This document shows, piece by piece, positions 71 to 19,337 of a DNA stretch of 64,000 nucleotides; position 1 is the stretch's first letter; each line of letters begins with the position of its first letter. The notes under the pieces are model-generated. The model was given only the letters and a program-made list of their open reading frames with translations, had not been told where the DNA came from and searched no databases. The position numbers and the translations under genes are program-made. The stretch comes from an uncultured Actinomycetota bacterium (lineage in GTDB: Bacteria > Actinomycetota > Actinomycetes > Actinomycetales > Dermatophilaceae), in assembly GCA_963828995.1 (NCBI GenBank), contig CAWHHB010000005.1, forward strand, positions 249,338-313,337, given 5' to 3'.

Positions 71-886
71 GTGTGCCCGCTGGACAACACCGGCATCGTG
101 GCCGTCGCCGGACCGCTGGACGAGGTCGCGGAGCAGGCCCACCGCTCGATTCTGCACGCGCTGGCCGACGACTTCAGCGCCGTCCTCTGCGACCTGAGCG
201 GCGTCACCGGCTTCCCCGCACCCGAGGCGACCGCGCTGCTGGCCTCCGTGGGCTCGGAGGTGCGTCAGTGGCCGGGCACGCCCGTCGGCCTGGTCTGCCC
301 GGCCGTCCGGCTGCGCCAGAGCCTGGGTCGCCACCCCGACAGCCGCTACCTGGTGCTCGCCGAGCGTCGCCGGCAGGCACTGGCAGCGCTGGCCCGCCAG
401 CCCCGGGCCACGATCGTGCGGGCCTCGCTGCCCCCGGTGGCCCGCTCGGCACGCGCCGCGCGCGACCTGGTGGCGCGGACGCTGCTGGACTGGGGCTGGG
501 GCCCCCAGATCGGGAGTGCGACGCTGGTCGTGAGCGAGCTCGTGACGCACGCGATGCTCGACGCCGACAGCGAGCTCTGGGTGACGATCTCGCGATGCGG
601 CTCACAGCTGCGGTTGGCGGTGCGCGACACCAACCGCACGAGCTCCTCGCTCGTGGGGCTGGACCCTGCGCGCCTCACCCACCGCGGGCTGATGCTCGTG
701 GCCGCGGTCTCGGAGTCGTGGGGCGTGCTGCCGACCAGCGTCGGAGGCAAGGAGGTGTGGGCCGTGCTGTCGGCCAACCCGTCATCTGCGCGCGCCCGCC
801 CGCCCGCGGCGGCCGCGGGCGATGCCGCGGCGCGCTCCCGCCGGACGCCTCGCCCGCGGCCGGGGCGTTACCCTCGTCCACCATGA
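71..886 (+). CDS. STAS (anti-sigma-antagonist-like) domain fused to an RsbW/SpoIIAB-like HATPase anti-sigma regulatory domain
   Basis: 271-aa ORF. The N-terminal half is STAS-like (GIVAVAGPLD..AVLCDLSGVTGF). The C-terminal half is RsbW-like (ARDLVARTLLDWGW..ATLVVSELVTHAM..LRLAVRDT..GLMLVAAVSESWGV). Its TGA overlaps the next ATG (ATGA at 883-886). The frame stays open to the window start, so the true start may lie upstream. Confidence 0.55.
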   Translation: MCPLDNTGIVAVAGPLDEVAEQAHRSILHALADDFSAVLCDLSGVTGFPAPEATALLASVGSEVRQWPGTPVGLVCPAVRLRQSLGRHPDSRYLVLAERRRQALAALARQPRATIVRASLPPVARSARAARDLVARTLLDWGWGPQIGSATLVVSELVTHAMLDADSELWVTISRCGSQLRLAVRDTNRTSSSLVGLDPARLTHRGLMLVAAVSESWGVLPTSVGGKEVWAVLSANPSSARARPPAAAAGDAAARSRRTPRPRPGRYPRPP

Positions 887-1530
887 CGGCTCCGACCACG
901 CCGCGGGTGCAGCGCGTGCTGACCACCGCGGAGTGGATGCGCCGGAGCACCGCGTCTGCCGACCTGCTGAGTGAACCGGAACGGCTTCGCGCACAACGCT
1001 TTCGGCGTGAGGATGACCGCCTGGACTTCATCGCTGCGCACCTGCTCGCACGCGAGGTCGTCGCGGAGCTGCTGGGGGTGGCGTCCGCTGAGGTGCGCCT
1101 GGCCCAGTCCTGTCCGGACTGCGGTGCCGACGACCACGGACCGCCGCGCGTGTCGGTCCCGGGGCACGCGGGTGTCTTCACCAGCTGGTCCCACAGTACG
1201 GGCCGGATCGGCGCGGTCGCCGCGCTGGCCCCGGTGGGCTTCGACCTCGAGCGCGTCACCAGCGGCCGGAGCGTCACCGAGGCCGAGGTGCACGTGCTCT
1301 CGCCGGGGGAGCTGGCGCAGGTGCGTGACGCCGCGGATCCACGGGTCGCGTTCCTGCACTGGTGGACCCGCAAGGAGGCACTGGTGAAGGTCGGTGCGAT
1401 CGAGCTCGACGACTTCGGCGGCACGGACCTGAGCGGGCACCCGCAGCGGTGGGGCAGCTGGGCGCTGTCGAGCTGGCACGACCGGGGGAACGACGTCGTC
1501 GCTGCGGTGGCCGCGACGCCCGGCTCCTGA
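883..1530 (+). CDS. Sfp/EntD-type 4'-phosphopantetheinyl transferase
   Basis: In-frame ATG at 883 inside ORF 73..1530. Family motifs are present: FTSWSHSTGRIGAVAA, VGFDLERV (GxDxE) and FLHWWTRKEALVKVG (WxxKEAxxK). It is convergent with the NRPS operon. Confidence 0.8.
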   Translation: MTAPTTPRVQRVLTTAEWMRRSTASADLLSEPERLRAQRFRREDDRLDFIAAHLLAREVVAELLGVASAEVRLAQSCPDCGADDHGPPRVSVPGHAGVFTSWSHSTGRIGAVAALAPVGFDLERVTSGRSVTEAEVHVLSPGELAQVRDAADPRVAFLHWWTRKEALVKVGAIELDDFGGTDLSGHPQRWGSWALSSWHDRGNDVVAAVAATPGS

Positions 1531-1588
1531 CCGGCCGCCGGTGGCGCCCGACGGCGGCGCGCAGTCGGGCCGCGGCGCCGTCGAGTGC

Positions 1589-2661
1589 CTAGCCGTACCG
1601 GCGCAGCTCGTGGAAGAAGTCGTCGACGACGTGCAGCTCGCCGGAGCGGGCCACCTCGTCGTAGACGAACTTGCCGACGGCGAGGTCGAGCACGCCGAGG
1701 CCGAAGGGCGAGAACACCACCGGTCCGGTCGGCCGGCACCGTCACCCGCCCGGCCATCACGTCGTCCAGCGTGCCGAGCAGGAAGTCCCGGTTGCCGGTG
1801 AGCTGCTCGACCAGGTGCGGCGAGGTGTTGGCCTTCAGGCAGTGCTCGACGTCGTCGACGACGTTGGTCGAGGCGAGCAGGATCTCCGGTGCGAGGTCGC
1901 GCAGCGACACGTGCAGCACCACCGGGTGGTGGTCGAACCACGACACGTCGCTGATGTGCGGCTGGCCGGCGACGGTGGCGAAGACCACCAGGTCGCTGGA
2001 GCGGATCAGCTGCTCGGCGCTGTCGTGCACGGTGATCGGGCCGGCGGTGCCCGACTGCTCGAGGTAGCCGCGGAAGCCGGCCGCGCTGTCGGCGGACAGG
2101 TCGTGCACGCCGATCTCGTCGAACGACCAGCCGGTGCCGGCCAGGAAGGTGTGGATGTAGCGGGCGATCAGGCCGACCCCGATGAACCCGACCCGCGTCG
2201 GGCGCGGCCGGCCGCGGCTGAGCCAGTCGGCCGCCAGCGCCGCCGACGCGGCCGTCCGGGTGGCGCTGATGATCGAGCTCTCCAGGCAGGCGAACGGGTA
2301 GCCGGTGTCGTGGTCGTTGAGGATCAGCACGGCCGAGGCCCGCGGGATGCCGGCCGCCACGTTCTCCGGGAAGCTGGAGATCCACTTCAGGCCGTCCACC
2401 CGCACCTGCCCGCCGATCGACGCGGGCAGCGCGATGATCCGGGACGACGGGCGGTCGGGGAAACGCAGGAAGTACGACGGCGGGTTCACCGAGTCACCGG
2501 CACCGTGCACCCGGTAGGTGGCCTCGACCAGGTCCACGATCTCGCTTCTCGCGCCCCTGCAGCGCCTGCTGGACCTGGGCGCCGGAGATCACCGCGAAGG
2601 GTGGCACCGTCACCTGCCCGGGCGTCGCGGACTCCGTTGCGGTGGAACGAGCAGTGGTCAT
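1589..2661 (-). CDS. sbnB: 2,3-diaminopropionate biosynthesis protein SbnB (ornithine cyclodeaminase family), frame-broken in this sequence
   Basis: The core lies in ORF 675..2537: VNPPSYFLRFPDRPSSRIIALPASIGG..GLKWISSFPENV..AVLILNDHDTGYPFACLESSIISATRTAASAALAA..FIGVGLIARYI. The N-terminus (MTTARS..FAVISGAQVQQALQGREK) and C-terminus (VVFSPFGLGVLDLAVGKFVYDE..FFHELRRYG, stop TAG 1591-1589) are in other frames. Frame breaks fall near 2545 and 1725. ATG 2661 overlaps an upstream TGA. Confidence 0.75.
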
Positions 2662-3666
2662 CGAGCGGTCACCTCGACGGTCGGCGAGCAGGTCGGCGAG
2701 CCGCACCGGGTCGGCCATCGCGACCAGCACCTCGCGCGGTCCCTCGAAGGCCTCCCGGCTGTGCGCGGTGCGGATGTTGTCGACCAGCATCAGGTCGCCG
2801 GCCTGCCACGGCTCGCGCGCGGTGTTGGCCTCGTAGACCTCGTTGAGCAGCTGCACGACGTCCTCGCCGATCGGGTCACCGTTGCCGAAGCGGGTGTTGA
2901 ACGGCAGCCCGTCGTCGCCGTAGACGTCGACCAGGTACTCGCGCACCTCGGGGTCGATCGTCCACTCGTTGAGGAAGGCGATCTGGTTGAACCAGCAGCG
3001 CTGGCCGGTGACCGGGTGACGCACCACGGCGCTGCGGCGCTGCCGGGTGCGCAGCCCACCGTCGGGCTGCCACTCGAACTCGATGGCGTTGGCGCGGCAG
3101 TAGCTCTCGACGGCGCGCACGGTCGTCGGTGCCGAACGCCTCGGCGACGGACGCCCCGATCTCGTCGTTGTAGCTGCGGGTGAGCAGCCAGCCCTCCCGC
3201 TCGAACCGCTCGACCAGCTCGGCGGGCAGGGCGTCGAGCACGGTCGGCGAGTCGGCCACCGCGGTCGCGCCGCCGTCGGTGGGCGCGCTCAGGCACGCGA
3301 ACAGCATCAGGCCGGGGAACTCGAGCGGCGTAGCTCAGCTCGTGGTGCATGCACATCGGCTGGTTCGGCGGCCACTTCGACGAGGAGTACACGCCGTCGG
3401 CGTAGGTCCGCCGGGACGCGAAGGCCTCCCGCTCGGTCATCAGAGCGGTGGCCAGCCGCCGGAAGACGGCACCGACCTCGGCCGCGTCGCGCAGCCCGAG
3501 ACCGCGGACCAGGACCGAGCCGTGCTCGGCGACGACGGCGCGCAGCGCGTCGCGGTGCTCGGCCGCCCAGCTCGGTCGCGTCGCCGGCGGCGTCGGCCCG
3601 CAGCATCGGAGGCCTGCCGGGTTGCCGGTCCACGTCGAGCAGTGACGCCGGGGATGAGGACGACAT
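2658..3666 (-). CDS. TauD/TfdA-family Fe(II)/2-oxoglutarate dioxygenase (NRPS-associated hydroxylase type), frame-broken
   Basis: Rebuilt from minus-strand segments. These are MSSSSPASLLDVDRQPG (ATG 3666, AAGGAA RBS), EHRDALRAVVAEHGSVLVRGLGL, MTEREAFASRRTYADGVYSSSKWPPNQPMCMHHELSYA (HxE), LMLFACLSAPTDGGATAVADSP, and VVRHPVTGQRCWFNQIAFLNEW..GDLMLVDNIRTAHSREAF (distal His/Arg). At least 4 frame breaks. The stop is assumed to be the TGA of the ATGA overlap at 2658-2661. Confidence 0.65.
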
Positions 3667-3688
3667 CTGGTTTCCTTTCACTTGCCAC

Positions 3689-6600
3689 TCAGGAGGAGGC
3701 GAACAGGTCGGCGGCGCGCAGCACGGCCTGCGCCGCCTCGGTCGGACGGGTGCGCAGGAAGTAGTGGCCACCGTCGGCGATCTCGTGCAGGTCGACGTGC
3801 TCGGCCAGGACCTGCCAGTCGCGGTGCCGCTCGCGGGTACTCCGCCGTGATCGGGTCGTCGGCGGCGACGACCACGGTGACCGGGGCGGACAGCCTCACC
3901 GTCGGGCGGCGCGTCCAGGGCGTCGGCGAAGTAGCGGTGGGCGGACACGCAGTCGTGCCGGTAGGCGGCACCGACGTGCTCGGCGCGCTGCGCATCGAGC
4001 TCGCCGAGCTCGGTGTAGCCGCTGTCCGCGCTCAGCCCCGCGGCGATCTCGGCGTTGCTGCGCTGCGGTCAGCTCGGCGATGGCGGCGCGCCGGTCGGCG
4101 GCGTCGCCGAGCAGCTGCGCGCCGAGGAACACCCGCTGCACGTCGACCCCACGCTCCTGCAGCCGCCTGGCCGTCTCCACGGCGAACGCGGCGCCCGAGG
4201 AGTGGCCCCACAGCAGCACCCGGGCCAGCCCGAGACCGGTGATCTCGGCGACGACCTGCTCGACCACCTCCGCCATCGGCGCGAACGGCTCACGCTCGGC
4301 GGCCAGGTCGTGACCCGGGCAGCTCGACGGCGTAGACGGCCAGCCCGCTGCCGCGCAGCGCGCCGGCCATCGGCTGGAAGTTCACCGCGTTGCCGCCGGC
4401 GTACGGGAAGCACACGAGGACACCGGACGGCGGACCGTCCGGCTCGCTGACAGGGGCTGGAGCAGCCCGGACCGCTGCTCGCGACCTGCCGTCGACCAGC
4501 GCGGCCAGGTCGGCCAGGACCGGGTGGCGGGTGACGTCCTTGAGGGACACCGCCCGGTCCAGGGCGATGGCCAGCTTCACGGCCGACAGCGACGTGCCGC
4601 CCCGGTCGAAGAAGTGGTCCTGCCGGCCGATCTGGTCCTGCGGGATGCCGAGCACCTTGGCCCAGGCGGCCGCCAGCCGCTGCTCGGTCGGCGTCCTCGG
4701 CGCGTCGTAGTCCTCCTCGACGACGTCGAGCTCTCCGGCGAGCGCGGTCAGCGTCTTCCTGTCGATCTTGCTGTTGGCGGTCAGCGGCAGGCTCTCCCGC
4801 CAGTGGAAGGCCGACGGGACCATGTACTCGGGCAGCGACTGCGGCCAGCCGCTCCCGCAGGACGCTCGATCGTCGAGCGGCTGCTGGCCGGAGTAGAAGG
4901 CCACCAGGTGCTTGCTCTGGTCGGCCCGCTCGGCGACCACCACGGCGCCGTCGCGGACACCGGGCACGCGCAGCAGGGCGTTCTCGATCTCGCCGATCTC
5001 GATCCGGAAGCCGCGGATCTTGACCTGGGTGTCCCGGCGGCCGAGGAACTCCAGCTTGCCGTCCGGGCAGCCAGCGGCCGTAGTCGCCGCCGCGGTAGAG
5101 CCGCTCGCCCTCGCCGGTGCGGGTCGGTCAGGTAGGACTCGCCGGGTGCGCTCGGGGTCGTTGACGTAGCCGCGGCCGACGCAGACCCCGGAGAAGACGA
5201 TCAGCGCCGGGGGCGCCGAGCGGCACCGGCGACAGGTGCTCGTCGACGACGTAGACGTGCACGTTGTTGACCGGGCGGCCGAGCGGCACCCGCTCGCGCG
5301 TCCGGCACGCGGTCCATCACCTCGTGGTTGGTGTCGTCCGAGGTCTCGGTCAGCCCGTAGGCGTTGACCAGCTTGATCCCGGGCTGGGCCGCGAACCAGC
5401 GCTGCGCGAGCTCCTTCTTCAGCGCCTCGCCGGTGACCGACACGCACCGCAGGTCCGGCAGCTCGCGGGGGTGCTGCTCCAGGTAGGACAGGACGACCTC
5501 GAGGTAGGACGGCACGACCTGCAGCACGGCGACCCGGCCGTCGACGATCGTGTCGACGAACCGCTCGACGTCCAGGATCACCTCCTGCTCGACCAGCAGG
5601 GTCCGGCCGCCGACCAGGAGCGCGGAGACCAGCTGCCACAGCGAGATGTCGAAGCACTGCGGCGCGGTCTGGGCGACCACCTGCCCCTCGCCGATCTCCA
5701 GGTCGTCGATCTTGGCGTAGAGGTGGTTGAGCATGCCCGCGTGCTCGCACATCGCGCCCTTGGGCTCACCGGTGGAGCCGGAGGTGAAGTAGATGTAGGC
5801 GAGCTGGTCCGGCGCGACGTCGACGCCGAGGTCGCCGTCGGCGTGGTCCTCGTCGTAGGCCGTCGTCGACGAAGAGCGTCTGCGACCCCGGGCAGCGACG
5901 TCGAGGGCCTGGTCGAGCGTGGTCGTGCTGCCGGGTTCGGTCAGCACGAGCGCGCACCCGGCCCGGGAGAGCGTGGTCGCGATGCGATCGGCCGGGAAGT
6001 GCGGCTCGATCGGCAGGTACACGCCACCGGCCTTGAAGATCGCGAGGACGGCGGCCATCCAGTCCAGGTTGCGCTCGGTCACCACCGCGACGACGCCCTC
6101 GCGGCGCAGCCCGCGCGCCAGCAGGGCTCGTGCCGAGCCGGTTGGCGCGGGCGTTGAGCTCCCGGTAGGTCCACTGCCGGTCGCCGTGCACGGCCGCGAC
6201 GGCGTCCGGGTGCGCCGCGCACCCGCTGCTCGAACAGCTCGTGGAACCGGCGGTCCGGCAGCTCCCGGCGCGGTCCGGCCAGCCCGTCGAGCTGGAAGTC
6301 GCAGCTCCTCGGCGGAGAGCAGGCTCTGCCGCCGGTGCTCGGCGTCCGGGTCGGCGGCGATCAGCGCGAGCGCGGTGAGGTGGTAGCCGGCGATCCTGGC
6401 GGCGCACTCGGCGTCGAGCACGTCGGTCCGGTACCGCAGCCGCAGCACGAGCCGGCCGTCGTGCTGGCGAGATCCCGACCCACAGCACGGTGTCCTCGGC
6501 CAGGTCGCCGCCGTCGCCGGTCGGGTCGAACACGGTCTCGAACGACGGCTCGGTCAGGCCCAGCTCGCGCCGGAGGTCGTCGACCGGGAAGTCCTGGTGC

Positions 6601-6966
6601 GCCAGCAGCTCCGACTCGACCCGATGGGCGTCCAGCACCAACGCCCGCCACGACTCGGGCTCGGTCGTCAGCCGGCAGGGCAGCGGCGGGCGCGCCGTGC
6701 CGGGCGACGTAGCCGGTCGCGACCTCGCGCTCGCCGGACAGCGCGGCCAGCACCTTGGCGTGCGCGGCCAGCAGCACCGAGCTGAGCGGCACCCCCAGCT
6801 CGTCCGCCAGCCGGCGCAGCGCCGCCACGAGGTCGTCCGGGATCGTCGCCTCGTGCTCGGCGACGCCCGGCACCGGGTCGAGGGTCCACCGCGGGATCGC
6901 GGTGAACCCGCCGGCGGCGAGCACACCGCGCCAGAACTCCCGGCCGGCCTCAGTATGCGTTCCCAT
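3689..6966 (-). CDS. Single-module non-ribosomal peptide synthetase: ~200-aa C-domain-like N-terminus, then A, PCP and TE; heavily frame-broken
   Basis: The start is MGTHTEAGREFWRGVLAAGGFTAIPRWT (ATG 6966). A-domain motifs: LAYIYFTSGSTGEPKG, QCFDISLWQ, NAYGLTETS, GKLEFLGRRDTQVKIRGFRIEIGEIE and PLTANSKIDRK. PCP: DHFFDRGGTSLSAV. TE: VLVCFPYAGGNAVNF and LLWGHSSGAAFA (GxSxG), with C-terminus ..GGHYFLRTRP..DLFASS and stop 3691-3689. I count more than 15 frame switches among ORFs 6361..6984, 5766..6926, 5201..6448, 4290..5750, 3896..4276 and 3678..3995. Confidence 0.8.
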
Positions 6967-6980
6967 CAAGTCTTTCCCTT

Positions 6981-9859
6981 TCACTTACCTTGGCAGGTGC
7001 TACCTGCTGCTGACCAGAGCGGCGCCGGCGGTTGTTCTTGCTGGAGCGGCGGGCCGGCAGGGTGACCGGGTGGTCCCGCATCTCCCTGGCCGGGTTGCCG
7101 CCCCACTGGGCGTGCGGCGGGACCTCCTCGCCCTTCATCAGGAAGGAGTCGGGGGCGAGCACCGCGCCGTCGCCCATCGTCACGCCGTAGTGGACGAAGG
7201 CGCCGACCCCGAGCGTGCAGCCGGCACCGATCGTGATGCGGTCGGACTTGAAGGCGCCGTCCTCCTGCGAGTGGCACTGGATCGACGCTGCCCGCGTTGA
7301 GCGTGCAGTCGTCGCCGATGGTGACCAGCGTCCTTCTCGGTCAGCTAGCAGCCGTCGTCGAAGACCCGGCGGCCGATCCGGACACCCAGCAGCCGCCAGA
7401 TCAGGTTCTTGAACGGGGTGCCGTTGAAGACCTGGAGGTAGGTCGACCGCGGGCACCTTCCAGAAGCGTTCGTGCCGCCAGAAGCTGCGGTCGTAGATCG
7501 AGCAGAACTGCGGCCGCAGCGGCCGGAACGCCGTCGACGGCCCGCTCGACCAGCACGAAGTAGACGACGGTGAACAGCGAGGACTGAGCGACGTTGGCCA
7601 GCGCGATCGCCGCACGCGCCGAGCGCGTCGTAGAGGTCCGACGGCGGCCAGGCCGAGCAGGGTGACGCACGAAGACGTAGAGCCACCGCACCAGCAGGAA
7701 CAGCCCGATGGTGACGAGGTTGTGCCTGTTCTTGGCGGCGAGGCGGCGGCGCAGCTCGTCCGCCGCTCGCCAGGTGGTCGAACGTGCTGTCCCGCTCGAC
7801 CGATGCGCGGGATCTCGAAGCTGGGCGAGCCGAGCAGCCCGACGCCCTCGCGGACCTTCCCGTCGATCGGGACCATGACCTTCGTCGCGAGCAGGCAGTT
7901 GTCGCCCGTCCTGCCCTGCGACGGGTAGGCGATGTGGTTGCCGAGGAAGTTGTGCGCCCCGATCGACGCCCGGGACACCCGGAACGACGTGCTCGAGAAG
8001 TCGGCGTTGATGATCGACAGCCCGTCGGCGACCATCGTCCCGCTGCCGACTGAGCTCAGGTACGGGTTCTCGTGCTTCACCTCCGTGCCGAAGTTCGACC
8101 CGGTCTGCTCGCACGTGCGACGAGGTCGTACCCGAGCCACGCGCAGGTAGTGGACGATGTAGGAGCTGTCGCCGAAGAGGTACGGTGAAGAACTTGAGGT
8201 TGGTCATGCGCGCGATCGCCCGGTGGACCGAGTAGTGGAAGCCGTACAGCGGGATAGACCTTGTCCGGCTTGATGAGCGCGGTTGAGCAGGCGCGGGACG
8301 GTGACCACGACGAGCAGGCCGACGAGCAGCGAGCCGAAGAAGAGCACGAGGGAGATGACCAGGGCGTCGACGTAGAACGCCCGGGTCGTGAGCGACCACG
8401 GTCGCCGGGTCCAGCAGCGCCGGCGAGCGCAGGGACCGCGGTGAGCAGCATGATCACGGCCGCCGAACGCCAGCGGCAGGTACGAGCGACCAGCACGTTG
8501 AGCAGCTGCAGCGACGGTGTAGCCGACCCTGCGCAGCGTGCCGCAGTCGGCGGGCTCGACCCTCCGGTAGTCGACCGTCGGTGCGCTGCGCCGGGGACCC
8601 GTGCCAGCGCTCGCCGGCGGGCACGGCCTGCCCGGCGTGCAGCGACGGAGGCGTGGCCGAGCTGGGCCCCGTCGCCCATCGAGGTGTCGATGTCGAGCAC
8701 CGTCTCCTCGCCGACGAACACGTCCCTGCCGAGGGTGACCGGGCCGGTCTGGATCACGCCCGTGCGTGGGCCCGGTAGCAGCTGAGGAACGAGTCCTTGC
8801 GGATGACCGTGCCGTCGCCGATGGTGAGCAGGTCGGTGCACACCGGCACGTTCCGGGAGAGGATCGCGACGCCCCGCCCGATCTTCGCGCCCAGCGCCCG
8901 CAGGTAGAGCGAGTACAGCGGCGAGCCGACGAACAGCAGACCAGCGGGTTCGACCGGACCAGCGTCTTGACGAGCCAGAAGCGGACGTAGGCCAGGCTCC
9001 AGACGCGGATCTGCCGCGGCTTCCACCGACCGATCGAGCACCCACTTGGCCAGCGATCGGGAAGGTGCACAGGACGACGAACAGCGCGCAGCGCCGAAGA
9101 CGACCGACCGCAGGTAGATGTCGACCACGCCCGGTGCCGGCCGAGATCCACTCGTAGCCCGCGGACCACGAGCAGCGCGGCGAGGTAGGAGTACCCGAGG
9201 AAGACCAGCAGCTGCAGCGCCCCGCACAGGACGCCATCCGCAGGCCGGCGGCCCGTGCCGGCGCCGGTGCCGACCACCTCGGCCGGCGACCGGCGAGTCC
9301 GGCACGGCAGGGGCGGGCACGGTGTCGGCGAGCGCCGTCGCCAGGCTGCTGATCGTCGGGTGCTGGTAGATGTCCTTCATCGACACCGACGGCAGGTCGG
9401 CCCGCTTCCGCACCCGGGCGCAGAACTGGGCCATCACCATCGAGTCGGCGCCGAGGTCGTCGAAGAAGTGCGCGTCGACCGGCACGCGGTCGACGTGCAC
9501 GATCCCGGCCAGCACCTCGGCGAGGGTCGTCGTGAGAGTCCGCCCGACCGGCACGGGCGCGGCGTCCACGAGCGCCGTCGCCAGGCTGCTGATCGTCGGG
9601 TGCTGGTAGATGTCCTTCATCGACACCGACGGCAGGTCCTCCCGCTTCCGCACCCGGGCGCAGAACTGGGCCATGACCAGCGAGTCGGCGCCGAGGTCGT
9701 CGAAGAAGTGCGCGTCGACCGGCACCCGCTCGACGTGCACGACGTCAGCCAGCACCTCGGCCAGGGACCGCTCCAGGCTGGTCTCCGGGCGTCGTACCTG
9801 ATCTGGTTGGTTGCCGGTGCGGACAGGTCGGCGGTCAGGATCCCGGCGGACTTCTTCAC
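6981..9859 (-). CDS. PCP-PCP didomain fused to a Pls/PosA-type NRPS terminal region (three hexapeptide-repeat domains interleaved with TM helix pairs); no adenylation domain; frame-broken
   Basis: GTG 9859 has an AAGGAG RBS 8 nt upstream. Two carrier domains each carry FFDDLGADS(L/M)VMAQF. Hydrophobic pairs then alternate with beta-helix-like segments. These segments are IGRGVAILSRNVPVCTDLLTIGDGTVIRKDSF..GPVTLGRDVFVGEETVLDIDTSMGDGAQLGH, then ENPYLSSVGSGTMVADGLSIINADFSSTSFRVSRASIGAHNFLGNHIAYPSQGRTGDNCLLATKVMVPIDGKV, then IGRRVFDDGC..IQCHSQEDGAFKSDRITIGAGCTLGVGAFVHYGVTMGDGAVLAPDSFLMKGEEVP. The stop is either 6981 or 6950, depending on the last frame break. Confidence 0.7.
9330..9809. repeat. 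Tandem 240-bp direct repeat (two units) encoding the two PCP domains
   Basis: Unit 1 (9330-9569) and unit 2 (9570-9809) both begin gagcgccgtcgccaggctgctgatcgtcgggtgctggtagatgtccttcatcgacaccgacggcaggtc. They stay near-identical for ~175 bp and then diverge. The period is exactly 240 bp, i.e. 80 codons. Confidence 0.9.
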
Positions 9860-9912
9860 TACGTGAGCTCCTTGAACCAGCGTTGGCGAATCTCGCGGCA
9901 TGAGCGGCCCCG

Positions 9913-10944
9913 TCAGGTGACGAGGCTGCCGGTGACGGCGTCGGCGGTCTGGTCCAGGCTGTCCGGCGACCAGCCCTCAGCCCCGATCGACGTGAGCAGG
10001 TCCTTGCCGTAGAGGTCCTGCAGCCAGTTGGTCTGGTAGACGGTGTCGAGGTAACGCTCGCCGAGGTCCGGCGCGATGGCCACCGCGGTGAGGTCGCTCG
10101 CCGTCGTGCTGGGCCAGCCAGCCCATGGCCCCACTGACCACCGTGCCGGTCGAGCCGCCGAACAGGAACCCGCGGCGGGCGAGGCGGTGGCAGGCCCGGA
10201 CGGTGTCCACCTCCTCGACGCGCACGACCTCGTCGACGTACGACTCGTCGAGCAGCGGCGGACGCATGCTCATGCCCAGACCGGGGATCATCCGGCGGCC
10301 CGGTGCGTCGCCGAAGGTCACCGAGCCGACGGCGTCGACGGCGACGACCCGCACGGGCCGGTGCCACTCACGGAAGTAGCGCGCGCAGCCCATCAGGGTC
10401 CCGGTGGTGCCGGCCCCGACGAACAGCACGTCCAGCTGCGGGAAGCTGGCGGGCGATCGCCGGCGCCGTCGTGCGGTAGTGCGCCTTCCAGTTGCTCGGG
10501 TTGGTGTACTGGTTGAGCCAGACGTACCGCTCGTCGGAGGCGCACAGCGCGACGCACGTAGTCGATCCGCGCGCCGAGGAAGCCGCCGACGGCATCGGGC
10601 TCGGCGACGATGTGCACGTGGCTGCCCAGCGCCTCCATCAGCCGCCGGGTCGACAGGTTGCAGCGGGGGTCGGTCACGCACAGGAACCGGTAGCCCCTGC
10701 TGGCGGCGATCATGCTCAGCGCCACGCCGAGGTTGCCCGACGAGGACTCGACCAGGATCGAGTCCGGCCGCAGGATGCCGTCGCGCTCGGCGGCCTCCAC
10801 CATCTCGGTGGCGGCCTTGAGCTTGATCGAGCCGGCGAAGTTGAAGCCCTCGCACTTCAGGAAGAGCGAGTGCCCGAAGATGGACCGAAGGTCGACGTAG
10901 AGCTCGTCCTCGTTGAACGCCTCGGGGGCGGATATGACTGTCAC
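9913..10944 (-). CDS. sbnA: 2,3-diaminopropionate biosynthesis protein SbnA (PLP-dependent cysteine synthase family), frame-broken
   Basis: GTG 10944 is preceded by GAGGAGG 6 nt upstream. Sequence: VTVISAPEAFNEDELYVDLRSIFGHSLFLKCEGFNFAGSIKLKAA (PLP Lys)..ESSSGNLGVALSMIAASRGYRFLCVTDP..ERYVWLNQYTNPSNWKAHY..VGAGTTGTLMGCARYF..GFLFGGSTGTV..AIAPDLGERYLDTVY. At least 3 frame breaks (ORFs 10393..11031, 10368..10595, 9977..10855, 9913..10134). Confidence 0.8.
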
Positions 10945-11422
10945 TATGGCCTCCTCATGTAACGCAGCGGGTCGGTGTCGATCTGCTCTGACATCGACTG
11001 TGCCGCCGGAGCCCCGGCTGCCGACAGGCACCCCAGGGCTGGGAGGGCCGCCACCTTGGGTCCGTCTTCGTCTACCCCGGGTCCGCCGTCCGCCGCCCGA
11101 GCAGGATCGACGGGCCGTCGCTGCTGGCGCTCAAGAAGGAACCTGGCCCCCGGCGCCTGACGGACAAAGGGGCTGGTTGGGGTGGTAACAGACACGAAGT
11201 TCTCCTCGCGGTGGTCATCCGTGCGCACCTTGCGGGCGTCATCTGCTGGTGTGTCCCTCAAGGCTCACCGACTCGCCGCCGAGGGCTCTACCGCATACGA
11301 CGCACGTTGACCTCCCGAAAACTTCCCTCACCCGGGCGTCTCGCGCTGTGTACGACTTGCACGGCCTTGTGCGGTTTGTCTTGATTGGGAGGGTCTTGGA
11401 CGCTCTGGGCTCAGGCGGCGGG

Positions 11423-12676
11423 TCAGGACCGGCGGCGCGAGGGTGGCCGTGAGTCCACCAGATCGCGCGCCAGACGACAGCTCGTGGACACCAGTGCCTC
11501 GAGCGGTCCCCGGGGCTCCGTACGGCTCCAGACGCCGGCGAACGCCAGGCAGCCCAGGACCAGCGCTGCGTAGAGCACCACGGGATGGTCCTCGAGCGGG
11601 TACACCGACAGCACCAGGATGTGGGCCGTGTACAGCGTCAGGGCCATGCTGCCGGCAACCGCGACGAGCCGGACCAGCCGCCCGTGCCGGCGCGACCGGG
11701 CCACCAGCAGGCAGACTCCCAGCACCGCCATCGCCACCCCGAGGTCGTGCAGCATCCGCAGCGGGGTGACCGTGTACGGCGCGCGCTGCGCCAGCCACCA
11801 CCACGAGAGGACGGGGTCGGGGTCCCAGAGGACCACGTTGCGCGCCTGGGACGCGCCCAGGTGGGCCGGGGCGGCGGCCCGCAGGTGCTGCAGGCCGCCG
11901 AGCTGGAGCATCAGCAGGGAGGCGACCAGCCACGACACGAGCGCCAGGGCGGCCCCGCCGGCAGCGAGCCTGGCCGCCACCCGCCGCGCGGAGAGGTCCA
12001 GCCGCCCGATCGCGATCCCGGCGCAGATGAAGGCGAGATACTCCACCACCGGGTAGGAGCCGCTCACGAGCAGCGTCGTCGCCAGCTCGACCGGATGGGC
12101 CAGCGCGCCGACCGTGGGCTCGTCCGTGTTCAGGTCGGCGCCGAACGAGGCCAGGACGACCAGGGGCGCGATCACCACGAGCGACAAGGCAATTGACGCC
12201 AGGGCTCGCGAGCTCAACCGGATCAGGGGGATCGCCAGCAGGAACATCGCGCCGTAGTAGGGCAGGATCACGTCCGCGGGCGGGTCGGTGTAGTTGAGGA
12301 CGAGACCGATGAGGCCGATCAGCAGGGCGCGGGTCGCCATCGAGGCGGCCGTGCCGGCGTCCGGCCAGCCGGGCCCAGCGCCGGCCCGTGAGCTGGAGCT
12401 GCTCCGCTGGGCGGCCAGCGCCAGGCTCACGCCGGCCAGCAGGACGAAGGTCGCCAACGCGTGTCCGGCCACCAGCTGCTGGGTGCGGCTGGGGGAGTAG
12501 TCGCTGTGCAGCGTCGCGAAGACGTGCACCGCCATCATGCCCATCAGCGCCACGCCCCGCGCGAGGTCGACGCCCAGGACCCGCCCCCGTCGCGGCCGCA
12601 GGCCGGCCGGCTCGCCCACCCGGTCGGGCGGGGGCGGAACGATGTCGGCGCGGTCTGCGTCGGCGTGCTCGGCCAT
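11423..12676 (-). CDS. Polytopic membrane protein, DUF418/DUF1624-like (acyltransferase-like)
   Basis: Intact ORF 11423..12790. The likely start is MAEHADADR at 12676. It has multiple hydrophobic helices (LGVDLARGVALMGMMAVHVF.., ..LTLYTAHILVL..). This is a family-level guess from sequence pattern only. Confidence 0.45.
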   Translation of the reverse strand: MAEHADADRADIVPPPPDRVGEPAGLRPRRGRVLGVDLARGVALMGMMAVHVFATLHSDYSPSRTQQLVAGHALATFVLLAGVSLALAAQRSSSSSRAGAGPGWPDAGTAASMATRALLIGLIGLVLNYTDPPADVILPYYGAMFLLAIPLIRLSSRALASIALSLVVIAPLVVLASFGADLNTDEPTVGALAHPVELATTLLVSGSYPVVEYLAFICAGIAIGRLDLSARRVAARLAAGGAALALVSWLVASLLMLQLGGLQHLRAAAPAHLGASQARNVVLWDPDPVLSWWWLAQRAPYTVTPLRMLHDLGVAMAVLGVCLLVARSRRHGRLVRLVAVAGSMALTLYTAHILVLSVYPLEDHPVVLYAALVLGCLAFAGVWSRTEPRGPLEALVSTSCRLARDLVDSRPPSRRRS

Positions 12677-12860
12677 GTCGGCTCCCGTCGGTCGAGGACT
12701 CCCCGTTTCGCCCGGTCTGCGGCGGGCACCGGTGTCGTCGAGTGATTTGATTGCGTTCAGGGAGAATGCCATTCGCGCTGTCAGGATCACTGGGAGGGAA
12801 GTTACGTGGTTTCCGCCGAGAGCGACAGAGCCCGAAGGGTGAACGGGTCATCCTTGGGAC

Positions 12861-13415
12861 ATGGACATCGACTGGGCATACGAGCTCGTGGAGCAGGTTG
12901 ACTGGCACTGGCGTGAACAGCTGCGTCCCCGGTACGACGGGCTGAGTGACGAGGAGTACTTCTGGGAGCCGGTGGCCAACTGCTGGAACGTCCATCCCCG
13001 GGGACAGGGTCGGGCGCGGATCGCGGCAGGCGCAGGGGATTTCGTCATCGACTTCGACTACCCGGAACCCTCGCCCGTGCCCGTCACGACCATCGCCTGG
13101 CGGTTGGCACACATGGTCGTGGGCGTGCTCGGTGCCCGGGTGGCCAGCCACTTCGACGGTCCCGCCGTCGACTACCAGAGCTTCGACTACGCGGGTACCG
13201 CTGAGCGGGCGCTACAGCAGCTCGACGGCGTCTACGCAGCGTGGCGCAGCGGTGTCATCGGTCTCGGGGAAGAGGGGCTCGCCCGACCGTGCGGACCTGC
13301 GGAAGGACCGTTCGCGGCCTATCCGATGGCGGCGCTGGTGCTGCACATCAACCGCGAGATGCTGCACCACGGCGCTGAGGTCGCCCTGCTGCGCGACCTG
13401 TACGCCAACCGCTGA
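12861..13415 (+). CDS. DinB-family protein
   Basis: Intact 184-aa ORF with a DinB-like four-helix pattern: WHWREQLRPRYDGLSDEEYFWEPV..TIAWRLAHM..HINREMLHHGAEVALLRDLY. Confidence 0.6.
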   Translation: MDIDWAYELVEQVDWHWREQLRPRYDGLSDEEYFWEPVANCWNVHPRGQGRARIAAGAGDFVIDFDYPEPSPVPVTTIAWRLAHMVVGVLGARVASHFDGPAVDYQSFDYAGTAERALQQLDGVYAAWRSGVIGLGEEGLARPCGPAEGPFAAYPMAALVLHINREMLHHGAEVALLRDLYANR

Positions 13416-13510
13416 TCTCTGTCTCTGCTGGGCGGCTGGTCCGCGAGTCGCCTTGGCAGCAAAGCGGATTGGGCCTGTGGATGGTCTTCCGCGGAATGCG
13501 GCCTGGCTGC

Positions 13511-13516
13511 TAGAAT
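13511..13516 (+). promoter_or_regulatory. Candidate -10 hexamer (TAGAAT) for a leaderless transcript of the DUF222-HNH gene
   Basis: TAGAAT lies 7 nt upstream of ATG 13524, with no Shine-Dalgarno in between. This spacing fits the actinobacterial leaderless mRNA layout. Confidence 0.3.
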
Positions 13517-13523
13517 CGTACGT

Positions 13524-14962
13524 ATGTTCGAGTCCAGCGTGGATGAGGTGGCGGCCGGGGATCTGGCCGGGCTGGCCGCCGCGCTGCTGGGGCTGACCGC
13601 CCGGGACGTGCTGGGTGGTGATCTGGCCTCGGCGCAGGCGGTGGTCGCGGCCACGCAGCGGGTGCTGAACGCGGTCTCGGCGGTGCAGGTGCTGGGGATC
13701 GAGGCGTGGGCGCGGCGGACCGGGTGAGGGCATCGCGGCGGACCGGGCGGCCTGGGGTGCGGCGCACCCGGGGCGGGCCTATCCCGGGCCGCGGGATGAG
13801 CACGAGTTCATGGACTGTGAGCTGGCGCCGGTGCTGCACGTGGCCCCGCGCACCGCGCAGCGGACCTATGAGACGGCCCGGACGGTGTGCGCGGTGCTGC
13901 CGGCCACCTGGGCGGCGATGCGGGCCGGTGACCTGGAGCCGGCCCGGGCCGAGGCGATCGCCCAGGAGGTGCCCCGGCTGCGCCCGGAGGTCTGCGCCCG
14001 GGTCGAGCAGGTGCTGTTTCCGGCCGTGCTGGGCCTGCCGACCGCCCGGGTGCGGGCCGCGGCCCGGCGGGCGGTCGCGGTGGCCGACCCGGACGAGGTC
14101 GCCGAGCGGGCGGCCCGGGCCCGGGCGGCCCGGTTCGTCCTGGTCCGCCCCGGCCTGGATCCGGGGATGAGCGAGTGGGTCGCCGCGCAGCCGGCCGAGT
14201 CCAGCGCCGCGGCCTGGGCCGCGGTGGACGAGCTGGCGCACGCCTACGTCGCCGACGGCGAGCACCGGTCGCTGGAGCCAGGCCCGGGCCGACGCGATGA
14301 TCGACCTGATCCTGGGCCAGGCCACGATCACCACCACGGTCGACCTCAGCATTCCGCTCAGCGCCCTGACCGCGGTGAGCGCGCCGACCGCCCCGACCGG
14401 TCCCGGCGAGGCCACCCGCGGCGACGCTGACCGCGACGCGGCCGGTGTCGGTGGCGGGCAGGGTGGCGGCTGCTCCTGCGGCGGCCACCGATCCCGGGGG
14501 CTTGCCGAGGTGGTCCTGCAGCTGCCGCGGGTCGGGATCGAGGCGGCCCGGGTCGGGCTGATCCCGACCGAGGCGCTGACCGCGCTGCTGACCGACCCCG
14601 ACACCCGGTACCGGGCCGTGCTGCACGACCCGGACACCGGCGCCCTGCTCGCCGTCGACGCCCGGGTCTACCGCCCCCACGAGGCGACCGCCCGGTTCGT
14701 CCGCCGCCGCGACGGCACCTGCCGCTTCCCCGGCTGCGCCACCCCCGCCGCCCGCGCCGACCTCGACCACGTCACCACCTTCGCCACCGGCGGAGACACC
14801 GACCCACCCAACCTGATCACCCTCTGCCGGCGCCACCACCGCCTCAAGCACCACGGCGGCTGGACCCTGACCATGACCCCCACCGGCCACGCCACCTGGA
14901 CCAACGGCATCGGCCAGCGCTACCAAACCCACCCCCTCGACCACCGCCACCTCGCCGCCTAG
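13524..14962 (+). CDS. DUF222 domain / HNH endonuclease (REP13E12-like family), frame-broken
   Basis: Three frame segments: 13524..13727, 13810..14430 and 14297..14962. The C-terminal HNH region is RFVRRRDGTCRFPGCATPAARADLDHVTTFATGGDTDPPNLITLCRRHHRLKHHGGW. Frame breaks fall near 13725 and 14285. Confidence 0.75.
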
Positions 14963-15032
14963 CCAGGCGGCGCGGGGCACGGGTCAGCCTGACCAGCGTG
15001 CCGGCTCCCGCTGGTGCTGCCACTCTAAGCAG

Positions 15033-15557
15033 ATGGCGCTGTCGGTCTGCCTGCTGTTCGACCCCAGGGGCGAGCACGCGGTCCGTGCCCTCTGGTCCCG
15101 TCTGGAGGGGCACGGCGTGCCGACCCTGGCCACGCACACCCATGGTCGGCACCACCCGCACCTGTCCTACGCGGTCCTGCTGCGCTGGGACCTCCAGCTC
15201 GTGCAGGATGCGCTGGCCGTCCTGCCCGACGGGGGACCGTTCCCGATGACGTTCCAGGGCATGGTCGCCTTCCCCCGGGGCCGCGCCTGCCTCGCGCCGT
15301 CGTTGCCGGCGGCGGTGGTGGCGCGACAGGAGGCGGTGTCCACCGCCCTCTCGGCCTGTGGCGCGCTGGTGCACCACCACTACGAGCCCGGACGGTGGGT
15401 CCCGCACTGCTCGCTGTCGCCGCGCGCCAACGGTGGAGCGCTGCCCGTGGTGGCCCAGGCGGTCAGCGACGTGCTGCCGCTGACGGTCCATGCCGCCCGC
15501 GTCGCGCTGGTCGACAGCGCGACCGGTCAGACGTGGCTGCTGCCCACGACGCCGTGA
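15033..15557 (+). CDS. 2H phosphoesterase / 2'-5' RNA ligase superfamily protein
   Basis: Intact 174-aa ORF with two HxS/T-type motifs (HPHLSY and VPHCSL) at the typical spacing. Confidence 0.55.
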   Translation: MALSVCLLFDPRGEHAVRALWSRLEGHGVPTLATHTHGRHHPHLSYAVLLRWDLQLVQDALAVLPDGGPFPMTFQGMVAFPRGRACLAPSLPAAVVARQEAVSTALSACGALVHHHYEPGRWVPHCSLSPRANGGALPVVAQAVSDVLPLTVHAARVALVDSATGQTWLLPTTP

Positions 15558-15722
15558 GTCATCAACAGTCCGAAACCCTGGGGGAGTGCGCTCGTCGGCG
15601 CTGGTCGTGAGGGTGCGCCCTGCCGAGGCGAGGCGAGGCGGGGTGGGGCTGGCCGAGCTGGCGTTGCTCGGTGCAGGGCGAGGCGGTTCGGTGCAGGGCG
15701 AGGCGGTCGCTGCAGGCGGTGG

Positions 15723-16680
15723 TCAGGGCTTGGGCTGGATGACGGCGACCGGTCCGCCCGCCGCGTGCAGGACCGCATGGCTCACCGAGCCGAGGAGCAT
15801 GCCGGTGAAGCCACCGTGACCGCGTGAGCCCACGACGACGATCCCGGCGTCTGCCGATGCGGCGGCGAGCGCCTGACCGGCCCGGCCCTCGACGGCCTGG
15901 CCGGCCACGTCCAGGTCGGGGTGACTCGCCTGCACCATGCCGACCGCCTCGGCGACGACCTGCTCCGCGCGCTCACGTTTGGCGCTGTGCAGGCCGGCTG
16001 TCGTGGGGCGCCGCGTCCCAGTACGCGCGAGCCCACGTCTCGCTGGCGGGCACCTGCCACACCGAGATGACCGTGAGCGGCGCCTCCCAGGTGGCCGCCA
16101 GGTCGGCTGCGAACGTCACGGCCGACGCGGCCGCGAGCGAGCCGTCCACCCCGACCACGACGGGGCGGCCGGGTCCGGGCGGGAGGGCGGGACCGGTGGG
16201 GACGAGCACCACCGGGCAGCAGGCGTGGGCGATGACGGTGAGCGACCTGGCGCCGAGCAGGGCCGAGGTGAAGGCGCCGTGCTCGGCGCGACCGAGCACC
16301 AGCAGGCTCGCCTGCCGGGACGCCTCGACGAGGGCGCCGGCGGCACCACCCGTGGCCGGGAAGCTGCTCGCCTGCACCCCGGGCCCCACCGACAGTGCGC
16401 GCGAGACGCCCTCGTCCGCCACCGCGGTGGCCCGCTCCAGGGCGACGTCACGCAGGTGCTCGGTGCTCGCGCCGGGCCAGACGGGCACGGACGAGTAGTC
16501 CACGGCCGTCAGCACCCGCACGCCGGTGTGCGACTGCGCCGCGGCCGCGGCGGCCCAGTCGACCGCAGCGGAGGCGGAGGGGGAGCCGTCGTACCCGACG
16601 ACGACCGGCTTGGGACTCTGCGTCTCGCGCGGCCGGTCGGGTGCGGGGGCGTCGGCAGGCTCGTGCTCGGCAGCGGTCAT
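15723..16680 (-). CDS. Tandem universal stress protein (two UspA domains), one frame break
   Basis: Domain 1: PVVVGYDGSPSASAAVDWAA..LLVLGRAEHGAFTSALLGARSLTVIAHACCPVVLV. Domain 2: VVVGVDGSLAAASAV..IVVVGSRGHGGFTGMLLGSVSHAVLHAAGGPVAVI. ATG 16680. The frame break is near 15960. Confidence 0.7.
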
Positions 16681-16890
16681 GCAGTCACGGTCGAGCCCGC
16701 CGACCGGCGCCGGGCAGGGGCGAAGGTCCTCCGGCGGTGGCCCGACCCCGCCGGCGGTCAACGGGTCCGGCCGGTCCCCGTCGCGCCGACGACCGGGCCG
16801 AGTCGCCTCGCGGCGGCGCGGGTGCCTGCGGCGATGGACGCGCAGCCTCGTAGGGTCGAGGAGACACCCGCTCCCTGCGAGAGGCGACCC

Positions 16891-18127
16891 ATGACCCTGC
16901 ACGTCGAGTCCGTCCGTGCGCAGTTCCCCGCACTGCGCGGCGGGACCGCCCACTTCGACGGTCCGGGCGGCTCCCAGGTGCCCCGCTGCGTCGCCGAGGC
17001 GGTCGCCTCGACCCTGCTCGGTGGGCTCTCCAACCGGGGCCACGTCAGCGCCGCCTCCCGCCGCGCCGACCAGGTCGTGCTCGAGGCCCGGTCCGCGATG
17101 GCCGACCTCGTCGGCGCCGACCCGCGCGGCGTCGTCTTCGGCCGCAGCATGACCTCCCTGACCTACGACCTGGCACGGACGCTGGCGCGCACGTGGTCAC
17201 CCGGCGACGAGGTGGTGGTGACCCGGCTGGACCACGACGCGAACATCCGGCCCTGGGTGCAGGCCGCGGCGGCGGTCGGGGCGACCGTGCGCTGGGTCGG
17301 GTTCGACCGCGACACCGGCGAGCTGCGTCCCGAGGACGTCGCGGCCGAGCTGTCCGGGCGCACCCGCCTGGTGGCGGTCACCGGAGCCTCCAACCTGCTG
17401 GGCACCCGGCCCGACCTGCCGGCGATCGCCGACCTGGTGCACGCCCGTGACGCGCTGTTCTTCGTCGACGGTGTGCACCTCGTCCCGCACGCCCCGGTGG
17501 ATCTCACCGCCCTCGGAGCCGACGTCCTGGTCTGCTCCCCGTACAAGTTCTTCGGCCCGCACTGCGGTGTCCTCGCGGCGCGCCCCGGGCTGCTCGAGAC
17601 GCTGGAGCCGGACAAGCTGCTGCCCTCCAGCGACGCGGTCCCCGACCGGTTCGAGCTCGGCACCCTGCCGTTCGAGCTGATGGCCGGGACGACCGCGGCC
17701 GTGGACTTCATCGCCGGCCTGTCCCCGCAGGCCACCGGCACCCGGCGCGAGCGGGTGCTGGCGTCGATGGCCGTGGTCGAGGCGCACGAGGACGAGCTGC
17801 TGGGTGACCTCGAGTCCCGCCTGGCCGCACTCGACGGGGTGGTGCTGCACGGACGTGCCGCCGAGCGCACGCCCACGGTGCTCTTCACGGTGCCGGGCCG
17901 GGACCCGGCCGCGGGTGAGCGCTGCGCTGGCCGAGGTCGGTGTCAACGCCCCGTCCGGGTCGTTCTACGCGATCGAGGCGTCCCGCTGGATGGGACTCGG
18001 TGCCGCGGGCGGCATCCGCGCGGGCATCGCCCCCTACACCGACGCCGGTGACGTCGACCGGTTGGTCGACGCCGTCCGGAGCACGCTGGACGGCGGCTGC
18101 ACGCTGGACGGCGGCCGGCGGGGGTGA
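16891..18127 (+). CDS. Class V aminotransferase, cysteine desulfurase-like protein, one frame break
   Basis: MTLHVESVRAQFPAL..FDGPGGSQVP..VAVTGASNLLGTRPDL..FFVDGVHLVPHAPVD..VCSPYKFFGPHCGVL. The C-terminus is in ORF 17804..18127. The frame break is near 17905. Confidence 0.7.
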
Positions 18128-18178
18128 GCGACGCCGTCCGCCGCGGGGCGGGCCGGCGGGCCCACTCCGGGCGTGGGA

Positions 18179-18197
18179 TAAGGTAAGGCTGTCCTAA
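18179..18197. promoter_or_regulatory. IdeR/DtxR-type iron box candidate
   Basis: TAAGGTAAGGCTGTCCTAA matches the mycobacterial IdeR consensus TTAGGTTAGGCTAACCTAA at 15/19 positions, and the degenerate TWAGGTWAGSCTWACCTWA at 18/19. It overlaps the ATG (18197) of the Fe3+ ABC substrate-binding gene and is an AT-rich island in GC-rich DNA. Confidence 0.5.
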
Positions 18198-19275: not shown

Positions 19276-19337
19276 GCATCCGCACCGAGGAGGTCCACCG
19301 GGCACGGGCCGGGAGTCAGCGCGCTGGCTTCCCGCCC

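Follow-up and report, generated by a model that had tools for sequence, protein, structure and literature searches.

A widespread gene cassette predicted to couple L-2,3-diaminopropionate supply to a Pls-type membrane polymerase without its own adenylation domain

The 64,000-nucleotide stretch of an uncultured Actinomycetota bacterium analyzed here (hereafter the window; contig CAWHHB010000005.1, positions 249,338 to 313,337) harbors a minus-strand cassette of five genes. These encode SbnA and SbnB, which supply L-2,3-diaminopropionate (Dap), a loader protein of the non-ribosomal peptide synthetase (NRPS) type, a TauD-family oxygenase and a Pls-type membrane polymerase that lacks an adenylation (A) domain. 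As far as the evidence goes, the biosynthetic cassette is real and intact. It is widespread and highly conserved, and not peculiar to the genome of the window. An earlier note on this DNA had proposed that the locus makes a Dap-derived, possibly oxidised oligomer or polymer. This is the best-supported reading, as SbnA and SbnB are equivalogs of the Dap biosynthesis enzymes, the A domain of the loader carries an L-Dap pocket of the 'mode 3' type and the polymerase falls into the poly-Dap/poly-diaminobutanoic acid (poly-Dab) branch. That the cassette specifies a two-component synthetase of cationic homopoly(amino acid)s of the Pls/PDAP type is, in our estimate, evenly poised between right and wrong.

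Gene content and reconstruction of the cassette

The window has a G+C content of about 72%, and its open reading frame (ORF) listing over 1-16 kb consists of overlapping fragments caused by frameshifts. A frame plot of the G+C content at third codon positions shows that the coding frame switches every few hundred bases between 1.5 and 11 kb. As plain ORF listing and plain tblastn proved unusable with these frameshifts, the proteins were rebuilt in two ways, by a codon-usage Viterbi stitcher trained on the long intact ORFs of the window and by protein-guided, frameshift-aware dynamic-programming alignment.

Searches of the rebuilt proteins with hidden Markov models (HMMs) recovered all six genes that the earlier note had listed, at its coordinates and in its order, and confirmed its domain calls. 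The minus-strand operon begins with sbnA (9913..10944; aligned span 10944-9916), encoding a PLP-dependent Dap biosynthesis protein (TIGR03945, PF00291). It is followed by the gene of the A-less polymerase of the Pls/PosA type (6981..9859; span 9859 to ~6981), in which HMMs detect two peptidyl carrier protein (PCP) domains and a TIGR02353 region, and by the loader gene (3689..6966; span 6966-3692), whose product is composed of half a condensation (C) domain, an A domain, a PCP and a thioesterase (TE) according to Pfam and NCBIfam. The last two genes encode a TauD/TfdA-family Fe(II)/2-oxoglutarate oxygenase of the 'SyrP-like' kind (2658..3666; span 3666-2661; PF02668) and the NAD-dependent Dap biosynthesis protein SbnB (1589..2661; span 2661-1592; TIGR03944). 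A 4'-phosphopantetheinyl transferase (PPTase) gene (883..1530; PF01648) is convergent with the operon, and codon-usage stitching shows that it is coded on the plus strand. The short or overlapping junctions reported before were borne out by the corrected alignments: the TauD gene and sbnB abut or overlap at 2661, and the stop of the polymerase gene and the start of the NRPS gene lie within ~15 nt. The sbnA gene starts with a GTG codon at 10944, preceded by the ribosome-binding site GAGGAGG. This gene arrangement does not reflect chance, since 51 of 63 untruncated related loci contain the same set.

Dap supply and carrier priming

Both Dap supply proteins were assigned at the equivalog level, SbnA by TIGR03945 with 386.7 bits (cutoff 349.95) and SbnB by TIGR03944 with 420.1 bits (cutoff 326.9). 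In frameshift-aware alignments they are 78% and 88.5% identical, respectively, to their Streptomyces atratus counterparts. The two genes are encoded together in the window and co-occur in the same 51 untruncated loci. The PPTase matches PF01648 (ACPS superfamily) with 30.1 bits (cutoff 25) and probably primes the three carrier domains of the cassette. It is not a conserved neighbor, as it adjoins the cassette in only two of 84 loci (L002 and L025).

The loader protein

After correction the loader is 80.9% identical to its orthologue on the metagenome contig L002. Its domains extend approximately over 6966-6290 (C-terminal lobe of a C domain), 6200-4715 (A), 4630-4445 (PCP) and 4360-3692 (TE), all on the minus strand. 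The A domain matches the AMP-binding profile with 251.9 bits and TIGR01733 with 368 bits. Alignment with GrsA by MAFFT yielded the Stachelhaus code DIWQSTADDK, which is the same in the window and in L002. In the crystal structure of the third A domain of SulM with L-Dap the code is DVWEMNADDK, and the two aspartates in positions 8 and 9 hold the beta-amine, a binding mode termed 'mode 3'; in BLAST homologues of this domain, position 2 is Ile and position 4 is often Gln (PMC12042044). The loader shares Asp 8 and Asp 9 as well as Trp 3 and Ala 7 with this pocket. The specificity prediction from the corrected sequence, a check proposed in the earlier note, thus returned an L-Dap code of the mode 3 type. 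Because the pocket matches mode 3 and the gene is tightly linked to sbnA and sbnB, L-Dap is the likely substrate, and the A domain likely activates it. A close overall relationship to SulM A3 was also considered and was not borne out: the two domains align with 269 bits, SulM A3 is not the top match in the PDB, and the pocket alone corresponds.

The corrected sequence also retains the carrier motif GGTS in the PCP and the motifs GHSSG and GGHYF in the TE. The latter domain was detected by PF00975 with 62.1 bits (cutoff 26.4) and contains the GxSxG signature. Of the 51 complete cassettes 30 (~60%) have a TE and 21 (41%) do not, so it is not a conserved part of the cassette.

The N-terminal region had been described in the earlier note as a C-like domain. 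Homology to C domains was found, but it covers the C-terminal lobe only. The Pfam Condensation profile aligns over its positions 190-278, below the cutoff, and the first 225 residues of the loader match residues 207-450 of McyA (8jbr; E 7e-18) and 200-427 of AmbE (7r9x). There is no coding room upstream of the loader for the catalytic N-terminal lobe with its HHxxxDG motif, and the C domain is thus incomplete. Judged by its sequence it would be unable to condense and may represent a non-catalytic structural remnant or a docking surface.

The A-less membrane polymerase

The polymerase starts ~30 residues before its first PCP and carries two PP-binding domains (~9765-9570 and 9525-9320), each with the carrier serine in an LGADS motif. 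They are followed by a TIGR02353 region that matches positions 2-695 of the 695-position profile with 703.9 bits (cutoff 423.1). No AMP-binding match was found by HMM in the polymerase, so the A domain that members of the Pls/PosA family carry in cis is missing. Six transmembrane (TM) helices are arranged as three hairpins around three soluble domains of ~185 amino acids, with hydropathy peaks at ~213-268, 459-514 and 712-761. The soluble domains C1 and C3 are homologous to each other (27.6% identity, E 7e-16), and HMM comparison shows that the soluble domains look like hexapeptide-repeat acyltransferases. A structure search returned no solved structure of a TIGR02353 domain. The corrected protein is 80% identical to the homologue P0004. 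With its full TIGR02353 region and without a cis A domain, it appears to be a variant that would work like a Pls-type synthetase and not a canonical member of the family.

A protein search identified 5,459 relatives at E <= 1e-10, the best of which is 74% identical. About 110 of the best 120 of these 5,459 homologues are without a PF00501 A domain. Relatives that do bear an A domain are 63-69% identical and display the pocket code DFECLSVVT(K), in which the Glu at position 3 is the hallmark of polymer synthetases; some of the fused A domains are truncated to remnants. A placement of the window polymerase in the poly-Dap/poly-Dab branch of the Pls-type synthetases is supported by these sequence comparisons. 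The simplest history would be that a synthetase of the poly-Dab/poly-Dap type had its own A domain decay and disappear once a separate loader took over.

The relatives vary in architecture. One to six tandem PCPs were found (P0006; P0043, P0030, P0120; L053, L059), in some cases together with a fused A domain of the DFECLSVVT(K) type. The A-less polymerase P0016 of Pseudonocardia nigra (L007) combines three PCPs with a seventh TM helix and two C-terminal PG_binding_1 domains; because of this additional helix and the peptidoglycan-binding domains, its C-terminus would be located outside the cell and touch the wall. At its C-terminal end the L002 polymerase carries ~200 amino acids of low complexity (12900-13633) with repeated proline-rich and Gly/Ser/Gln-rich units, a tail that is absent in the window protein. 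Some genomes hold two polymerase copies. Orphan polymerases in L010, L012 and L035 are accompanied by MFS transporters, a methyltransferase and a pirin.

The TauD-family oxygenase

The oxygenase matches PF02668 with 148 bits and contains the motifs of the metal triad, His-x-Glu (HHE) and the distal His (AHSR). After correction it is 88.6% identical to the S. atratus orthologue, and homologues with 88-94% identity, one of them annotated as 'SyrP-like', occur in many Streptomyces and Pseudonocardiaceae. The closest solved relatives, At3g21360 (E 3e-22) and the sulfoquinovose dioxygenase SqoD (E 9e-21), are uninformative on the substrate.

Distribution and variants of the cassette

For the survey one genome per species was used. 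At least 428 confirmed polymerase matches were obtained, and 80 loci were fetched. According to tblastn, in 51 of 63 untruncated loci the polymerase, the A-domain protein, TauD, SbnA and SbnB are encoded together, 18 of them in the order of the window. The syntenic loci that the earlier note had suggested looking for thus exist. Hosts include Streptomyces (S. lydicamycinicus, S. jeddahensis, S. spinoverrucosus and S. gossypiisoli), Pseudonocardia, Amycolatopsis, Actinomadura, Geodermatophilus and Blastococcus as well as a Dictyobacter metagenome-assembled genome (MAG). Intact cassette genes are present in the complete S. atratus genome CP121214.1 at ~1,500,108-1,509,338. Contig L002 shows the same gene order as the window, PPTase gene included, and contig L001 carries a rearranged cassette without a TE.

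Variant cassettes from Amycolatopsis and Streptomyces (L030 at 10001-19257; L008, L024 and L046) encode a polymerase with two carriers and a TauD protein; the latter is 76-83% identical to that of the window. They have a stand-alone A domain without a PCP, with the code DASVATMRSK, no SbnA or SbnB, and a FAD/Rieske oxidoreductase nearby. As the only carriers in these variants are located on the polymerase, loading there must occur in trans if the cassette works as predicted. The variants keep TauD without the Dap genes, which suggests that the constant partner of TauD is the polymerase with its carriers.

The window TauD is 88-90% identical to Streptomyces proteins. The RelA protein encoded in the window is ~81% identical to that of Kitasatospora, the sole Streptomycetaceae among the named matches; among the nearest named relatives of RelA the identity is 76-91%, with unclassified Actinomycetota and Cellulomonas MAGs closest. 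The comparison of the TauD and RelA identities hints at a horizontal spread of the cassette.

Comparison with known systems

The nearest functional parallel is found in S. albulus PD-1, in which poly(L-Dap) is produced by the Pls-like synthetase PDAPs together with the SbnA/SbnB-like proteins NjxA and NjxB (PMC4668381). Both systems combine Dap supply genes with a membrane synthetase that has one or more carriers, three soluble domains and no classical C domain. However, PDAPs is a single A-PCP-membrane protein with the code DFEYVGTVTK, whereas the window encodes an A-less polymerase with two PCPs and, in addition, a separate half-C/A/PCP/TE loader with the code DIWQSTADDK, a conserved TauD protein and an optional TE. 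Proven codes of this enzyme class are DFECLSAVTK for L-Dab, DFEYVGTVTK for L-Dap and DAESIGTVVK for Lys (PosA paper, Supplementary Table 2). The first belongs to the poly(gamma-L-diaminobutanoic acid) synthetase of Streptomyces celluloflavus, which has the same membrane architecture; this code differs at one position from the DFECLSVVT(K) code of the A-bearing relatives. Unlike this synthetase the window polymerase has no A domain, and its cassette supplies Dap and not Dab.

Pls, the epsilon-poly-L-lysine synthetase, and PosA, the delta-poly-L-ornithine synthetase, share the TIGR02353 region, the six TM helices and three soluble domains of ~180 amino acids with the window polymerase, but differ from it in possessing an A domain in cis, whose pocket has Glu at position 3 ('mode 1') (PMC10522769). 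All of them would polymerize through the side-chain amine from a PCP thioester, which for the window protein is a prediction. The PosA survey was based on a length window of 1100-1800 amino acids (PMC10522769). Such a window leaves out T-only proteins, that is polymerases with carriers and no A domain, of less than 1100 amino acids, which make up ~100 of the best 120 homologues found here.

The pocket of the third A domain of SulM from sulfazecin biosynthesis (PDB 9N1V; PMC12042044) is of mode 3, as in the loader. SulM is a multimodular monobactam NRPS with a full C domain, whereas the window encodes a single half-C loader and its cassette contains neither a sulfotransferase nor a methyltransferase.

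SyrP, AmbC/AmbD with AmbE, DdaC with DdaD and the L-alanosine pathway represent carrier-dependent TauD/SyrP-type systems in which a substrate is tethered, modified and released. They resemble the cassette in having a TauD-family gene beside an A-PCP(-TE) gene, and the half C domain of the loader is nearest to the solved C domains of McyA and AmbE. In contrast, carrier dependence of the window TauD is a prediction, and its closest solved relatives, the two proteins named above, are of low similarity.

The gene combination could not be matched to a characterized cluster in the earlier note, and no paper describing it was found in the open-access literature searched for this study either. Its parts are ordinary; together they constitute a variant of the cationic-polymer synthetases without a description in that literature.

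Proposed pathway

On the basis of the equivalog assignments and the published chemistry, SbnA and SbnB would form Dap from O-phosphoserine and glutamate, and the PPTase would prime the three carrier domains. The A domain of the loader is predicted from its pocket code and gene linkage to adenylate L-Dap. It would charge the PCP of the loader and also, in trans, both PCPs of the polymerase, since the A domain of the polymerase is missing or vestigial and variants with a carrier-less stand-alone A domain exist. The TauD protein may then oxidise carrier-bound Dap or the growing, N-beta-acylated chain. By homology to Pls and the PDAP synthetase, the six-TM TIGR02353 module would link the Dap thioesters through the side-chain amine to an isopeptide oligomer or polymer that is released at the membrane. 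In the ~60% of cassettes that have one, the TE may edit the loader PCP or clear it by hydrolysis, and the half C domain may remain as a non-catalytic remnant or serve as a docking platform. Tentatively, and with more reserve than for the synthetase type itself, we propose that the product is an undescribed polycationic isopeptide, a TauD-tailored (hydroxylated or dehydro) Dap chain made by a stand-alone loader that feeds an A-less polymerase, perhaps delivered to the wall; the cassette would then represent a large overlooked branch of these synthetases.

Several points weigh against this pathway. Both the product and the loading of the polymerase PCPs in trans are predictions from gene and domain content. 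The pocket match to SulM A3 could be convergent, as the overall similarity is ordinary, and the nearest A-bearing relatives of the polymerase carry a Dab-like code and not the PDAP code. A TE together with a dedicated loader PCP fits a tether, modify and release logic for a small molecule equally well. For the TauD step there is no clean chemical rationale: hydroxylation of a free-amine Dap thioester at C3 would lead to an unstable carbinolamine, for which reason the enzyme may instead act on an N-beta-acylated unit. No A, TauD or Sbn gene lies within 10 kb of the orphan T-only polymerases in L010, L012 and L035. Finally, the polymerase gene of the window contains 33 frameshifts and an in-frame TAG in the C3 domain (7345-7343).

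Alternative explanations

A polymer of another type, the comb-like poly[beta-(L-Dap-L-Dap)], would result if the PCPs of loader and polymerase each presented a Dap unit and the dipeptide repeat were polymerized. Such a polymer has been isolated from a poly-lysine-producing Streptomyces (Takehara 2021, as cited in PMC9606270 and PMC10522769). The literature searched yielded no report of genes for it, and the cassette does offer two kinds of carrier and a Dap-type A domain. We nevertheless consider this origin improbable, as a second amide-forming catalyst is not evident, the C-like part being devoid of the catalytic N-lobe, the number of polymerase PCPs varies from one to six, and that structure leaves nothing to do for TauD, a protein conserved in 51 of the 63 loci. 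A small Dap derivative that is tethered, modified and released, or a Dlt-like modification of the envelope in which the TIGR02353 protein moves single Dap-derived units to a lipid or wall acceptor, is unlikely too, but has more in its favor. The arrangement of A-PCP-TE and TauD suits it, the P. nigra homologue of the polymerase has a seventh TM helix and two peptidoglycan-binding domains, the proteins of the cassette are unusually conserved across genera, and no exporter gene is present in the cassette. DdaD and DdaC of dapdiamide biosynthesis and the L-alanosine pathway follow this logic of loading, modification and release. Against it stand the lack of a TE in 21 of 51 complete cassettes and the 63-69% identity of the polymerase to A-bearing relatives whose codes match proven homopolymer synthetases; moreover, the characterized TIGR02353 enzymes found in the literature are all polymerases. 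A cluster for a staphyloferrin-B-like or other Dap-containing siderophore, an option left standing in the earlier note, is hardly credible. The first description of SbnA and SbnB came from a siderophore pathway, and a Fe3+-type ABC importer is encoded at 18.2-21.3 kb, but neither the genes scanned or read in 1-21 kb nor the related loci with called genes include an IucA/IucC-type, NRPS-independent siderophore synthetase, and there is no IdeR-type iron box in the window. Unrelated genes, moreover, lie between the importer and the cassette, and the conserved set contains no such importer.

The earlier note had also pointed out that real frameshifts would make this a dead cluster. Indeed ~62 frameshifts and one in-frame stop codon were counted in 9.4 kb by guided alignment, with the highest density in the polymerase gene (33; NRPS 19, TauD 4, SbnA 3-4 with three single-base insertions, SbnB 2), and the frameshift density of the cassette is above that of much of the window. 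A decayed, non-functional cluster is still very improbable. About 51 of the 62 frameshifts are single extra bases away from homopolymers, whereas in bacterial pseudogenes the opposite, a bias towards deletions, would be expected. Their density is patchy along the window, with hot spots at 4-10 kb, 42-46 kb and 62-64 kb. The second of these is equally dense (15 and 8 frameshifts per 2 kb) and covers yajC, secD, secF, apt and relA, genes that a living cell could hardly carry in broken form; the third (10 per 2 kb) lies downstream of der. The window RelA has a match of 100% identity in the database, and this protein, from a 370-kb metagenome contig, is likewise a fragment (310 aa), which indicates that the frameshifts probably sit in the deposited assembly. 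Between the corrected cassette proteins and intact orthologues the identity is 78-89%, and the motifs LGADS (twice), GGTS, GHSSG, HHE and AHSR are retained. The frameshifts are thus very probably assembly errors and not signs of gene decay. Sequencing errors linked to homopolymers were rejected as an explanation, as the mean longest run is 2.41 at the frameshift sites and 2.44 in the background. A single nonsense codon was found in the five genes, the TAG at 7343-7345 on the minus strand. It lies in the third soluble domain at a site occupied by Trp or Gly in homologues and remains a caveat on an intact polymerase.

Flanking regions

A spacer of 481 nt with a lower GC content of ~0.675 (10945..11425) separates sbnA from the next gene upstream. 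Its position makes it the likely site of the operon's promoter or regulatory elements; it showed no match to an Rfam family, to the sigma-70 consensus or to an IdeR-type iron box. Directly upstream on the minus strand follows a membrane acyltransferase-family gene (11426..12847; PF07786, PF01757, PF04235) with an intact, stop-free frame of 474 codons. It is a neighbor of the cassette in only three of 84 related loci and may be an accessory gene outside the conserved cassette.

At the opposite end, a plus-strand frame at 1-883 encodes a product of ~290 amino acids that ends just before the PPTase gene; it has no Pfam match and by eye resembles a STAS/anti-sigma-factor-like regulator. The region 13500-21300 encodes a DUF222 protein with an HNH domain, a protein of the 2'-5' RNA ligase superfamily, a tandem Usp protein on the minus strand, a class-V aminotransferase and the Fe3+-type ABC importer, consisting of binding protein, permease and ATPase. 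None of these genes recurs beside the cassette in other loci. The flanks also include a DinB-like gene, and the flanking genes are unrelated to the cassette.

Significance

To our knowledge, few natural cationic homopoly(amino acid)s exist among the described compounds, and their characterized synthetases are all single A-PCP-membrane proteins. One of these polymers, epsilon-polylysine, is an industrial food preservative. Should the cassette produce a tailored Dap polymer, this enzyme class would gain both a new polymer chemistry and a mechanism of loading in trans. The five genes would then also provide genome miners with a signature that is present in many cultured strains of Streptomyces, Pseudonocardia and Amycolatopsis.

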